Under the pieces are notes generated by a model. That model searched no databases, was not told the DNA's origin, and saw only the letters and a list, made by a program, of their open reading frames with translations. A DNA stretch of 62,728 nt, filler included, from Globobulimina sp. (Eukaryota): the NCBI GenBank assembly GCA_003354225.1. It is 37 parts of 37 records of this genome, joined end to end, with 100 filler letters (N's around TTAATTAATTAA, not from the genome) between each part and the next. Parts side by side here need not be neighbours in the genome. Positions count along the whole stretch, not along the records: positions 42,465 to 44,061 come from PIVH01014323.1; 36 more parts are not named here. The stretch is one strand, 5' to 3'. Below, piece by piece: positions 40,939-45,750 of the stretch (position 1 is the stretch's first letter; every line of letters begins with the position of its first letter). A program made the position numbers and the translations under genes.

Positions 40939-41310
40939 TTATCTTGGCCCAGTCATCATGCCTTTGACATATTTGGAGTTGCGGCTACGGAGGAGGGGGA
41001 AGCGCCCCATGATGTCGGTAAGGCGTTCTGCTTGGTCTGGTAGCGCTTTGAGTTCGATGACGAGTTCTTTTTCGATGGGTAACGGCCGTTTCACATTCGG
41101 CATTATACTTAAACGCTGATCATACACTTTTTGGTCGAAATCCAACGTCAAGCGTACTTGCCCGTCGTGGGTGACGAAGTATTCGCGCTGGTAGCTATTG
41201 ATGACAGTTGGCTGGCTGTGCTGCTTGAGAATGGGGAGAAATGAGGGAGAAATAGCCGTTTTCACACCTGCAAGAACATCCGACCAAGCCATTCCTAAAT
41301 CCAATGAATA
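40939..41310 (-). CDS. Bacterial VTC / polyphosphate-polymerase-domain (CYTH-like) protein C-terminus
   Basis: YQREYF...VRLTLD...VIELK...SKYVKG; no introns; convergent with ndh with a 1-nt gap. Confidence 0.75.
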   Translation of the reverse strand, partial: YSLDLGMAWSDVLAGVKTAISPSFLPILKQHSQPTVINSYQREYFVTHDGQVRLTLDFDQKVYDQRLSIMPNVKRPLPIEKELVIELKALPDQAERLTDIMGRFPLLRSRNSKYVKGMMTGPR

Positions 41311-42364
41311 GGCCAATTTTTGGAAATTGCGTTATGCAGTAATGCATACAGTGCGTCATCTTTGTTAGCTTTGTGAAAGATAGCCAACGATAAGCCTTGA
41401 GAAGTGACAGCTTTTATGACAATTGTTGCCATTGGATCTTGAACACCAAGTTCGGTTGCTTTTGTTGACAGTCGTGACATTGCATCGGCAACTGTGTTGT
41501 CAGCACCTTTTCGGTATTCAATGGTGAAATCAAAAACAGACAAGCGTTCGTACCACCGAGCAAATTTACCAGATTTGCGACCATCCCCGTATTGTTTGAG
41601 CAATGTGGTGAGAGCTTGATGATCTGTTCTGAGTGTAAAATGACGACCAAGTAGAAATTTCTCCCAATATTCGGCAAAGTAGACAGCAGCGTAACCTTCA
41701 GCCTCATTTGTGGCCATACCTCGTTGTCGGGCATCTAAGGTGTGATGACCAAATGCTATAGGAATTTCACGACCATTCTGTACTTGTGACAGGACACCAC
41801 CAATGCCAACGTCGCACGCATCTACGGAGAGATAAGTTGGACAATTGGAGTCGAAAATGGCCAATTTGAGGTTGGTGCAGACTAACTTCTTCAGTGTTTC
41901 GAAGGCCTTTGAACAGTCAGCGGACCAATCAAATGTAACATCCTTTCGAGTGAGACTTCGTAGTGGTTCTGTGAGAGCCGCTAAATCCGGAAGAAATGGA
42001 CTGTAGTAGTTCAGCATACCAAGAAAACTTTGAACTTGTTTCAAGGTTGTAGGTGTTTGAGCATCACGAATCGGCTGTAAATTCTTGGGATCTGGTTTGA
42101 TACCTTCATGAGAAATGAGATGACCCAGAAACGGAACTTCGGCAGCGCGGAAAATGCACTTTTTGATATTAAGCCGTAGATTTTTGTCATTGAGCTTTTG
42201 TAACACCTTGTGGAGATTTGAATCATGTTCCTCTTGTGTTTCTCCAAAAATGATGATGTCATCCATATAAGGCTCACAACCTTGACAGTCAGCGAGTATC
42301 TGAGCAATCATTTTGTGGAAAACTGCGGCAGAATCCACCAAACCCATAGGCAATCTATTGTAAG
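41310..42364 (-). mobile_element. Ty3/Gypsy LTR retrotransposon pol fragment (RT + RNase H)
   Basis: RLPMGL, YMDDIIIF, FLGH, FLGMLNYY, VDAC..GIGGVL, FTLRTDH, YRKG..N.VADAMSR. Confidence 0.95.
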
Positions 42365-42464: not shown

Positions 42465-42581
42465 TGTTCAATATTTTAAGCATTAGCAATAAATTAGGAC
42501 AAGATTTCGAATCAAAAACATTAAAAATTATGGACACAATTATGGAAAAAAACGAAATTTTCGGCGTATCAATACCCTTAA
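42465..42581. mobile_element. Second copy of the TTAA-terminated repeat end
   Basis: Homologous to 28881-28999; ends GGCGTATCAATACCC-TTAA. Confidence 0.65.
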
Positions 42582-42651
42582 AATGTTTTTAAAGTTTTGG
42601 GCGAAACCAAAACCTTTTTTCAACAATCAGCAACCTAACTAAACTTTCATA

Positions 42652-43891
42652 ATGGCAGAAGGCGCAGAAGCAGATAATTCAAGCATTAACAAAAAACCAG
42701 CAACAGATAAAGTATGGAATTTCAAATTATTTCAAAACGGTCAAATGGCCACAAGTCTCTCTTGTATTGAGTTAAATGATATTTATATATATTTAAAAAT
42801 TACAACACAACTTTAATTCTCCAATACTCACACAACAAAAACAGATGTGGACATCCTCCAAAAAAATGTTTTGTCGACCATAACAATCAAACATTATGCG
42901 AGTTGTGCGCTGACCCATTATTACAAAAAGGATTTAAAATTATCGCAAATTCATATGCTGACACTCTTATCGCGCAGAGTGAGATAATATGTCCAAATGT
43001 ACTATTTGATCCAAGCAAAGTCGATGATGAAAAAAAAGAAGAAGAAAAACAATGCGAAACAAAGTGTTTAGTCAAGGATTGGAAACAGCACAATGACGCG
43101 GACTGTAACTACACAATCGTGGATTGTGCAAATTGTCACAGCGATTTTACAGCAGCGAGATGTTTACAGGCAGAACATAATAAAACCTGCGGCTATGTCA
43201 CTATCCAATGTCCGCAAAGTTGTGGCCGTGATATATTGCGAAAGGATACGGAGAAACATATAAACGATGATTGCGCCAAAACTATATTAGCGTGCAGTAA
43301 TATTGGTTGTCCAGATAAGATTGCCAGGGAATTGCATGCAAACCACGTCAACCAATGTCCTAAACGCATCGTACAATGTGAATACAGAGCATTTGGATGT
43401 ACTCAAATGGATGTTAAATATGAAGATATGGCGACGCATATGCAACAATTTGAAATCAAACATTTGCAATTCCATTTAAAATCTCTTTATCGATTGGTAC
43501 AACAAGTTATGTGATCTTATGTGTGTAGTTATTTATTATCTGAGTTGTGTATTAAACATGAAATAACTTTGACTGTGTACAGCAACAACAAGTGTCCGAT
43601 CAAAGTGGGATGATTCGAATGTTTGGTGGTAATATGAGAAGTATACCGAATGGGTGGATTTTATGTGATGGGCAAAATGGTTCGCCGGATTTGAGGAAAA
43701 TGTTTGCGTTAAACAATAGTAAACTGGAAATGGAAGAGGATGTTTGCGATTTTGATGTGGATCAAATCAGTGAATGTGAAATGGAAATGGAAGAGGATGA
43801 TGGTAAACAAACCATTGGCGATACTCCGTATAACCAGGAGAATGATAAGAATTTTTCACCATTTTCAATGATTTATATCATGAAAGTCTGA
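42652..43891 (+). CDS. TRAF-type zinc-finger protein with C-terminal phage tail-collar-like domain (introns 42771-42844, 43506-43582)
   Basis: Degenerate RING (CIEC...CELC); repeated C-x2/4-C...H-x3/4-C TRAF fingers and CEYRAFGC...H...H. The last exon reads SGMIRMFGG...IPNGWILCDGQNGSPDLRKMF...FSMIYIMKV. Confidence 0.85.
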
Positions 43892-44161
43892 TTTTATATC
43901 ATTGAAGGGGTTATTTCATATTATTTTGAATTTGTACGTGTTTATATATGAAGACTTGCATTTTAAAACCAAACCTTACTCTTTGTTTTGTTTAACGCCC
44001 ATCAAAATCATCAAGAACGTGCTTAACCACATTAAAACCAGTTGTTTAATAAAGTTCAAACNNNNNNNNNNNNNNNNNNNNNNNNNNNNNNNNNNNNNNN
44101 NNNNNTTAATTAATTAANNNNNNNNNNNNNNNNNNNNNNNNNNNNNNNNNNNNNNNNNNNN

Positions 44162-44547
44162 TTTTTTATTTTCATATCTTTTATTTGATGCCATATATTA
44201 ATATTATTATAATGTCCAACACCTAATACACCCCAAACAATACCACAACTAACAATATTTTTTATTTTTTTTTGAAAGGTTTTTATTTTTGTTATTTTTT
44301 TACACTTCAAGTGCATCACGGCCATCCAAGGATGCAGCTTTAAATTATTATTATTATTATTTCTTCCATTGCCTTGTTGTCCATATTGGTTGTTGCCAAT
44401 AGAATATAATTCCAAGAAAATTGTATAATGGAATGCATGAATAACATTAATAATATCCATATGGATGTATTGAGAGCTAGATTTTCCAACGTATCCACTT
44501 ACTAATAATTGTGAACGTCTTTTCATGACAGCATAATACCGGTTCAT
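44162..44547 (-). CDS. RCC1-like repeat protein fragment, possibly degenerate
   Basis: LYSIGNNQYGQQGNG, IKNIVSCG, GVLGVG; the expected spacing between motifs appears shortened. Confidence 0.55.
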
Positions 44548-44619
44548 TTTTTGGCGAAAAAAAAGTTTACTAACTTTATACTGTTTTTAAATCCTGTCAG
44601 GCAGTGTGTTTACCGAATA

Positions 44620-45750
44620 ATGATAAATGTCATAATTAAACGTGATTCTGCTAAACCCATATTAATATGCATTAATCCATTCGCTAAAGTGTCTGAATTA
44701 AAAGCCAGAATACTTAATGTACAACAAACAGAATTAGCTCAATCGTTTAAGCTATTTATTACACATAATGGATGTAAAAAAGAATTGAATGATAATGATA
44801 GATTGACAGATTATGGCGTCGTAAATAAGCAAACAACTTTATTATTAGTGCCAGCATTTGATGGTGCGAAATTTATACAATTTAAATTATTCAATGCAGC
44901 AAAAAGCGATCGCGAAATACATTCAACAGCAACAAAAGAAATATCACAATTTGACATAACACAACCGATTGATAAAATTATTGAAAAGTACCTACGTGAA
45001 ACTGATTTAAATCCATTATTTTATTCTGGTTATTGTCGATTTAAAAGTGTAGTAATTACATTTAATGAAACACAAAAACCATTAAAATTAGTATCCAGAC
45101 ACAATTCGAGGTTGCAAGCATCAAAAACATTTGATGGTAATGATATATTTAGCCATGGCCTAATTCCATCGGATACATTGTCACAATTAATTGCTGAATA
45201 TACTACAGATCTAAATGAAATTTTTTGTGATCGATATTATTTTGGTTGTCGCCATGACCGTGTTATGATTAAATCAGTAATAAACATTGAGATCACATTG
45301 CCAGATATTTCGTTTTTGCTTCATGATAAATATTATTATATCAATGGTGAATTTTATCAAAAATATGACAAACAAAATAATAAAATGAATTTACAATTTG
45401 TTCCATTATTAAAAAATGCACTCAAAGCAAAAGAAAAAGTGTTAGTATTTGGTTACATTCGTGATAGATTTAGCTTAAATTATCATATTATCCCATTAGA
45501 TATCATTAATTTAATTGATTTATTTTACCCTCAATTACATGGCGGAAGATACGAAGTAAGTGAATATAATAAAGGATTAAGCAATAAATTAGAACAAAAA
45601 ACGAAAACGTTTATAATCTCAGGAATTGAATTTTATTTAAGGTACGATTCAAAATTATATTTGGTGTTGAATTGTAAGCAAGAAACAAATATATCCGATG
45701 TTACATTTTTATGTCAATTATACTGTAAATCAACAAAGCAAAAAGTTTAA
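44620..45750 (+). CDS. Protein with N-terminal ubiquitin-like domain
   Basis: MINVIIK...KVSELKARI...KLF...ELNDNDRLTDYGV..QTTLLLV; C-terminal LVFGYIR..IPLDII module followed by a possible MATH-like start. Confidence 0.75.
   Translation: MINVIIKRDSAKPILICINPFAKVSELKARILNVQQTELAQSFKLFITHNGCKKELNDNDRLTDYGVVNKQTTLLLVPAFDGAKFIQFKLFNAAKSDREIHSTATKEISQFDITQPIDKIIEKYLRETDLNPLFYSGYCRFKSVVITFNETQKPLKLVSRHNSRLQASKTFDGNDIFSHGLIPSDTLSQLIAEYTTDLNEIFCDRYYFGCRHDRVMIKSVINIEITLPDISFLLHDKYYYINGEFYQKYDKQNNKMNLQFVPLLKNALKAKEKVLVFGYIRDRFSLNYHIIPLDIINLIDLFYPQLHGGRYEVSEYNKGLSNKLEQKTKTFIISGIEFYLRYDSKLYLVLNCKQETNISDVTFLCQLYCKSTKQKV

Follow-up and report, generated by a model that had tools for sequence, protein, structure and literature searches.

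The gene on contig 42465-44061 (PIVH01014323.1) is real, eukaryotic and spliced, and evolves under purifying selection. It joins TRAF-type zinc fingers to a C-terminal domain that is a 'headless' tail-fibre collar: the collar N-motif, an LTEAEMP remnant and the YIMK strand are present, and the His-rich head is absent. The architecture is new, and its parts are known. As the earlier note had supposed, searches of the full-text literature, supplements aside, turned up no description of a TRAF-collar fusion, nor of any spliced signalling protein with a collar in a eukaryote.

The window, that is, the whole 62,728-nt stretch of DNA that was analysed, consists of 37 separate contigs of 1597-1600 nt each, ordered by size and separated by spacers of the form N44-TTAATTAATTAA-N44. 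Because the contigs are merely joined by these spacers, adjacency in the window tells nothing of genomic neighbourhood, and the sole true context of the gene is its own 1597-nt contig. This contig holds a single three-exon gene on the + strand, with its ATG at 42652 (the first ATG past an in-frame stop), its stop codon at 43889-43891 and a product of 362 aa without an N-terminal signal sequence; the interval 42652-43891 is exactly the CDS. Exon 1 (42652..42770) encodes aa 1-40, including the first two bases of codon 40, and contains a conserved VW.[FI][KR]LFQN motif and the first C-x2-C. It is followed by intron 1 (42771..42844; 74 nt, GT..AG, phase 2), the removal of which joins MAEG...SLSCI to ECGHPP. 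Exon 2 (42845..43505; aa 40-260) encodes the RING-like Cys/His region, an acidic DDEKKEE stretch, the TRAF-type zinc fingers and the start of a helix, and is separated by intron 2 (43506..43582; 77 nt, GT..AG, phase 0) from exon 3 (43583..43891; aa 261-362 and the stop), which encodes the entire collar-like domain. The GC content is 25% in the introns and 37% in the exons. The earlier note had given the gene coordinates and the phase-0 GT-AG intron correctly, but had overlooked intron 1.

Several high-depth contigs that continue into unlike sequence matched both ends of the contig (42465-42581 and 43939-43996). These ends look like dispersed repeats, which is probably why the assembly stops there. 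No paralogue lies on any of the remaining 36 contigs (tblastn, best foreign E 2.8). On the contig at 40767-42364, an open frame on the - strand (41295-42362) matched RVT_1 (E 1.9e-13) and RT_RNaseH (E 5.3e-23), and is the end of a reverse transcriptase with RNase H, a pol fragment of the LTR-retrotransposon type. On the contig at 44162-45758, a 411-aa open frame on the + strand (44515-45750) had no Pfam match at E<=0.001.

Eight public runs from four studies contain the gene, none of them on record as RNA. We aligned contigs from four of these runs (X1, X5, X6 and X8), one per study. The joint 42770>42845, which skips the 74 nt of intron 1 with its GT..AG borders, was exact in the X1 and X5 contigs; it was displaced by 3 letters in X8, owing to an adjoining substitution, and was present as loose ends in X6. 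The joint 43505>43583, which skips the 77 nt of intron 2 (GT..AG), was exact in the X1, X5 and X6 contigs. Considering these exact exon-exon joints, an intron-less form of the gene exists in four independent data sets, and no contig among those aligned from the four runs covered the interior of an intron. A single X1 contig (record 3, 1170 nt) corresponds to 42625-42770, 42845-43505 and 43583-43949, thereby crossing both joints, and in length and arrangement is what a full mRNA would be. The untranslated regions are known as far as the intron-less contigs reach: on the 5′ side 42625..42651 (+ strand), X1 record 3 starting at 42625 and an in-frame stop lying just upstream of the ATG, and on the 3′ side 43892..43949 (+ strand), with 43949 as the last position of X1 record 3 and of X5 record 10. 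For runs without an RNA record, the simplest reading is that the intron-less contigs are mRNA. The check proposed previously, transcript reads across 43505/43583, came out in favour of the gene model in so far as intron-less contigs cross both splice sites. In addition, two database homologues, P0001 (344 aa) and P0003 (359 aa), read without interruption over both junctions, with the parts in the same order.

Comparison of the run contigs with the window listed 39 nucleotide differences, 9 further ones lying outside that list. Synonymous differences made up 29 of the 39 and non-synonymous ones the other 10, three of which, an apparent stop included, fell at 43729-43736, a patch of poor alignment around a 12-nt in-frame length difference. 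Outside this misaligned patch, all six differences in exon 3 were synonymous. Identity among P0001, P0003 and the protein encoded by the gene was 60-74% in the collar N-motif, 58-75% in the C-terminal strand, 48-57% in the zinc fingers and 23-35% in the linker, the N-motif being the long segment with the highest conservation. The base composition of exon 3 (GC 0.373, GC3 0.363) was close to that of exon 2 (0.377 and 0.318). The top stretch of the protein in identity (78-83%) was NVLFDPSK.DDEKKEE.K (aa 91-108; region 42922-42975), which separates the RING-like part from the first finger, and no family matched this segment.

The zinc-finger half was readily recognised. Exon 2 matched zf-TRAF (PF02176) with 61.6 bits (cut-off 27, E 1.2e-16), and P0001, P0002 and P0003 also matched this family. 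A PDB search with a profile of P0001 and P0003 retrieved a TRAF4 finger (E 3.4e-6) and an FLN29/TRAFD1 finger (E 5.7e-4), and weak TRAFD1-XIAF1_ZnF matches were also present. The fingers (about 43050..43463, + strand, about aa 109-246) were delimited by Cys/His spacing by eye together with zf-TRAF. Their TRAF type, asserted in the earlier note, is therefore borne out; their number, put there at about four, is five when counted by eye. The 'degenerate RING' of that note was not confirmed: at E<=1, neither exon 2 nor P0001 nor P0003 matched a RING family, no RING chain was among the PDB matches, and what is visible is a conserved C-x2-C...C-x2-[CH] pattern. The RING-like region (42763..42995, + strand, aa 38-90, spanning intron 1) retains this one site, with the second degenerate, and two lone conserved cysteines, including that of a lone C-P-N. 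MATH/TRAF-C was likewise without a match at E<=1 in exon 3, P0001, P0002 and P0003, and the match of exon 3 to Collar, described below, agrees with the proposal that a collar stands at the C-terminus instead of MATH.

The fingers are connected to the collar by a helix and poly-Q segment (43464..43606, + strand, aa 247-268, spanning intron 2), a candidate three-stranded coiled coil. In the AF2 full-length model of P0001, residues 230-265 form a helix, with low confidence (mean pLDDT 46). P0002 (187 aa, ENA) passes from KHLQF directly to QGMIRMF, without this connector of about 20 residues, so that not every member has a long coiled coil. The gap in P0002 could stem from alternative splicing, from the way the gene was called or from a true deletion.

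Several searches identified exon 3 as a collar. Its residues 9-34 matched Pfam Collar (PF07484) with 26.6 bits (cut-off 24, E 5.7e-6), a match that spans profile positions 1-24 of 57 only and is not full-length; P0001, P0002 and P0003 scored below the Collar cut-off, with 21.3, 22.7 and 12.7 bits. The PHROG family 'tail collar fiber protein' matched exon 3 at 3.5e-6, and phage tail fibres were 44-61% identical to its residues 8-43. No NCBIfam family was matched. A profile made from the C-termini of four family members matched the solved tail fibre 9qgo (E 5.8e-11) and, more weakly, C24 (6ov6) and the fibres 8on5 and 9nxk. When HMMER was run on 9qgo, the final strand of the family was collinear with the last residues of the chain, with a non-significant strand score. 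In the ESM Atlas, exon 3 retrieved viral tail-fibre clusters only (0.94), and P0001 gave no usable match. In the AF2 model of exon 3 (mean pLDDT 63.5), the N-motif reached 85-91 and the last strand about 89, and the linker remained below 50. All 10 Foldseek matches of this model at E<=10 were tail-fibre or collar structures, none of them at E<=0.001. VIA-align gave Z values of 4.0-5.0 and aligned T4 gp12 (1ocy) over residues 334..525, in agreement with the collar residues 342-397 of T4 gp12 given in an excerpt of PMC3004832. The tail-collar signature read from the sequence in the earlier note is thus recovered by the Pfam score and by the match to 9qgo. Both HMM matches foreseen there, to zf-TRAF and to Collar, were obtained. 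Of the outcomes that the note had named as refuting (a lack of spliced reads linking the exons, a read-depth or chimera break between 43514 and 43592, a last exon without a collar-family match), none occurred.

Alignments with canonical collars resolved three collinear conserved segments in the C-terminal domain, namely the N-motif, DF..ISE.EM and the terminal P.YSM.YIMK. The N-motif (43607..43711, + strand, aa 269-303) reads GMIRMFGG..IPNGWILCDGQNGSPDLRKMFAL. The second segment aligned with canonical (V/Q)LTEAEMP.H.H, as seen in EISEAEME of P0003 versus QLTEAEMP of P0204 and P0209. The C-terminal strand (43856..43888, + strand, aa 352-362, SPFSMIYIMKV; pLDDT about 89) is the counterpart of canonical PPYYxLAYIMK, and aligned column for column with canonical collars as P-(S/V/L/-)-(Y/F)-S-M-x-(Y/W/F)-I-M-K. 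In the same alignments, neither the GDTGG loop nor any H-x-H motif was present, nor was the long intervening insertion that makes up the receptor-binding head. Their place is taken by an acidic linker (43712..43855, + strand, aa 304-351) with 17 D+E, 3 K+R and no His, and across the family the replacement of the head measures 34-52 aa with 11-18 D+E and 0-2 His. It had been suggested that this linker replaces the fibre. It does replace something, but the missing part is the distal His-rich head inside the collar; the position of the fibre shaft, N-terminal to the collar, is occupied by the zinc fingers and the helix. Nor is the linker a pure spacer, since it holds the DF..ISE.EM remnant, whose conserved F-x-I-S-E-x-E-M segment aligns with (V/Q)-L-T-E-A-E-M-P.

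Within the linker, a 17-nt direct repeat occurs at 43726-43742 and 43783-43799, 57 nt apart, and both copies encode EMEED. The X1 and X5 contigs are 12 nt shorter, in frame, at about 43725-43746, so that linker length differs among near-identical alleles. The repeat and the in-frame difference together suggest that linker length varies by slippage. The domain is short: in a crude motif scan of 381 domains in 243 proteins, the distance from P.GW to the end of the C-terminal strand was 63 aa in P0001 and had a median of 128. Short collars also occur elsewhere. The first collar of P0101, a phage-like fibre of 1158 aa, measures 73 aa and ends with VPTYSLAIIMK, and the second collar of P0065 measures 71 aa. 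Since headless collars are therefore not unique to the TRAF-collar family, loss of the head may have preceded the fusion.

The gene has counterparts in four database proteins. Two of them, P0001 and P0003 from a eukaryote protein collection, are full-length and have the same architecture, with 53-60% identity. The survey for further cases proposed previously has therefore uncovered the same fusion in other eukaryote-derived proteins. When the C-terminal profile was searched against 1.84 billion representative proteins, 10,859 matched at E<=1e-3; of these, 387 reached E<=1e-10 and 4 reached E<=1e-30. P0001, P0002 and P0064 (a 79-aa fragment) belong to the TRAF-collar family among the best 150 of these matches; 30 of the other 147 listed were examined, and every one proved to be a canonical or short collar that lacked TRAF parts. 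In a word-indexed search, zf-TRAF was carried by 3 of the 120 matches listed (P0001, P0002 and P0003), the rest being Collar/Gp10_C, collagen and similar proteins, including some from Asgard-archaeal MAGs and 'microcystin-dependent protein' entries. Two multi-collar proteins from Asgard-archaeal MAGs, P0159 and P0109 (Promethearchaeota and Hodarchaeota according to their source), were among the better collar-profile matches. Among 243 stored proteins, only P0001-P0004 matched the N-terminal or the zinc-finger part. Relatives were absent among 594 pattern matches in JGI metagenome contigs and among 277 in IMG/VR viral contigs, and the window gene's own protein was absent from the protein collections searched. 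Given the few carriers in these searches, the TRAF-collar fusion is rare and apparently confined to one eukaryotic lineage.

A three-copy model of P0001 residues 236-344, made without an alignment of our own, scored 0.53 (runs 0.53, 0.55 and 0.53), and the best of three controls scored 0.01. In a two-copy calibration, the score mark was reached by 21 of 30 solved pairs of one chain and by none of 23 single chains; for eukaryotes the figures were 17 of 29 pairs and none of 30 single chains, again with two copies and not three. The three-copy runs had at least 66% contact agreement and a partner pLDDT of at least 62 (range 62-67). Confident modelled contacts between subunits followed heptad spacing in the helix (245, 248-249, 252, 255-256, 259 and 262-263 in P0001) and further involved the GMIRMFGG strand (268-278), PDLRKKF (295-306) and the last strand (333-342). 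Solved tail-fibre trimers exist, and the three-copy pass may therefore reflect likeness to them rather than binding. The model supports self-association of the P0001 C-terminus and, as a prediction, the trimerisation module postulated in the earlier note.

These results lead us to favour, with somewhat better than even chances, a TRAF-like scaffold whose C-terminal trimer cap would be the headless collar, preceded by a short coiled coil. The helix would form a three-stranded coiled coil leading straight into the collar, which would shut the trimer by beta-strand pairing between subunits, in which the GMIRMFGG and YSMxYIMK strands and the PDLRKxF segment take part, and would thereby act as the cap. 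The scaffold thus closed would hold out three zinc-finger arms. The receptor-binding head is gone, as are the His residues that bind metal, and the acidic linker would most likely be a flexible loop with a partner-binding or autoregulatory role. Coiled coil plus collar would have the same topology as phage shaft plus collar and as TRAF coiled coil plus MATH. The collar exon is probably an ancient acquisition from the prokaryote or virus gene pool, and its GC and GC3 now match those of the rest of the gene. The HMM matches, the splice joints, the trimer model and the homologues all favour the idea, put forward before this analysis, that a module, putatively derived from a virus or bacterium, was domesticated in a TRAF-like adaptor.

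Other functions of the captured domain can be envisaged. TRAF scaffolds are immune adaptors in animals, and the inter-subunit strands are the best kept and most conserved parts of the domain, as might be expected of a virus sensor whose collar co-assembles with, or binds, the fibre collars of giant viruses or virophages. Such an antiviral 'poison subunit' might tether viral collars to a scaffold of the TRAF type, for signalling or ubiquitin, much as restriction factors have been built from structural genes captured from viruses. Viruses of eukaryotes do have collar proteins, an excerpt of PMC3671162 describing OLV18/19 of a virophage with close relatives in the giant virus OLPV, and an excerpt of PMC12724248 three collar proteins in 45 virophages with heterotrimer models. 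We nevertheless hold a virus sensor to be unlikely: no virus of the host organism is known here, the IMG/VR pattern search placed no family relative on viral contigs, the RING looks degenerate, and the nearest collars are not assignable to eukaryotic viruses over phages, bacteria or archaea. That the gene is a host immune factor, whose captured fibre core heterotrimerises with, poisons or flags giant-virus or virophage collar proteins via the TRAF-type scaffold, appears quite unlikely; if true, a protist would have its own version of the restriction factors that derive from viral structural genes. Should viral fibres still be recognised by the collar, the protein would exemplify virus-derived immunity in a protist. 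The fact that gp12 binds LPS raises another idea, in which the collar remnant binds a small ligand or glycan and the protein serves as a cytosolic receptor for bacterial products. However, the head and the H-x-H motifs, which are the binding parts of canonical domains, are gone, and the linker that stands in their place, with its 0-2 His and 11-18 D+E, makes a ligand sensor an improbable reading.

The identity of exon 3 and the reality of the gene are open to far less doubt. A Pfam match over 24 of 57 positions and structural Z-scores of merely 4-5 could be taken to mean that exon 3 carries a convergent or chance motif rather than a homologue of the collar. Such convergence is very improbable given the E value of 5.8e-11 to a solved tail fibre, the 387 proteins at E<=1e-10 among 1.84 billion, the collinearity of the N-motif, ISE.EM/LTEAEMP and the terminal YIMK, and structural matches that were all collars. 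An assembly chimera, a pseudogene or a processed artefact might be suspected from a contig of only 1.6 kb that is bounded by repeats, and from runs whose library type is not on record. We regard this suspicion as scarcely credible, because the same exon joints recur in contigs of four studies, the frame is intact with a strong synonymous excess, and full-length homologues that are 53-60% identical have the same architecture.

Read as a TRAF-like scaffold capped by a headless collar, the protein can be compared with two sets of known systems. With tail-fibre collars (T4 gp12, 9qgo, the Pa223 fibre 9nxk, the Photorhabdus eCIS fibre 8on5 and Bizionia C24 6ov6) it has in common the N-motif G-h-I-x-h-(W/F)-x-G-x(3-5)-I-P-x-G-W-x-L-C-D-G-x-N-G-(T/S)-P-D-L-R-x-x-F, the L-T-E-A-E-M remnant and the terminal P-x-Y-x-h-x-Y-I-M-K strand. 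By contrast, its domain lacks the G-D-T-G-G loop, H-x-H and the head, follows zinc fingers rather than a beta-helical shaft, and is intracellular. Parallels in form are domain 1 of P0101 and domain 2 of P0065, which are also short (about 71-73 aa) and without His motifs, and VPTYSLAIIMK of P0101 resembles VPSYSMVYIMK of the TRAF-collar family; these are, however, internal or terminal modules of tail-fibre-like proteins that carry other, canonical collars, and they have neither an acidic linker nor a TRAF part. The collars of virophages and giant viruses (OLV18/19 and the DSLV2 tail proteins) belong to the eukaryotic virosphere and are a possible donor pool but, by their published descriptions, keep the receptor-binding head. 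A collar of the kind found in phages, bacteria, archaea and viruses is thus encoded here by an exon that is spliced like any other, in a eukaryotic protein of the signalling type. The protein is a rare case of an adaptor in eukaryotes that has incorporated a structural module of viral kind. It also defines a minimal 'headless' collar of about 75 aa which, if the trimer model is correct, may serve as a compact trimerisation tag.

On the TRAF side, TRAFD1 and XAF1 have TRAF fingers without MATH, as does the window protein, and we know of no collar and no trimer cap in TRAFD1/FLN29 or XAF1. The canonical TRAFs (TRAF4, TRAF6) share with the window protein the TRAF-type fingers and the helix that follows them, whereas the latter has no MATH/TRAF-C or RING match at E<=1. 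There is a likeness to TRAF7, in which WD40 repeats form the C-terminus in place of MATH (excerpt of PMC12387233) and for which a trimeric coiled-coil structure has been reported (excerpt of PMC11216086). In both proteins, zinc fingers are followed by a trimeric coiled coil, predicted by the model in the present case, and then by a non-MATH C-terminal domain. They differ in that TRAF7 is an animal protein with WD40 repeats, whereas the present one belongs to a protist, has no recognisable RING and ends in a headless collar of about 75-95 aa. The TRAF-collar family is a second natural replacement of MATH in a TRAF scaffold, beside the WD40 repeats of TRAF7.
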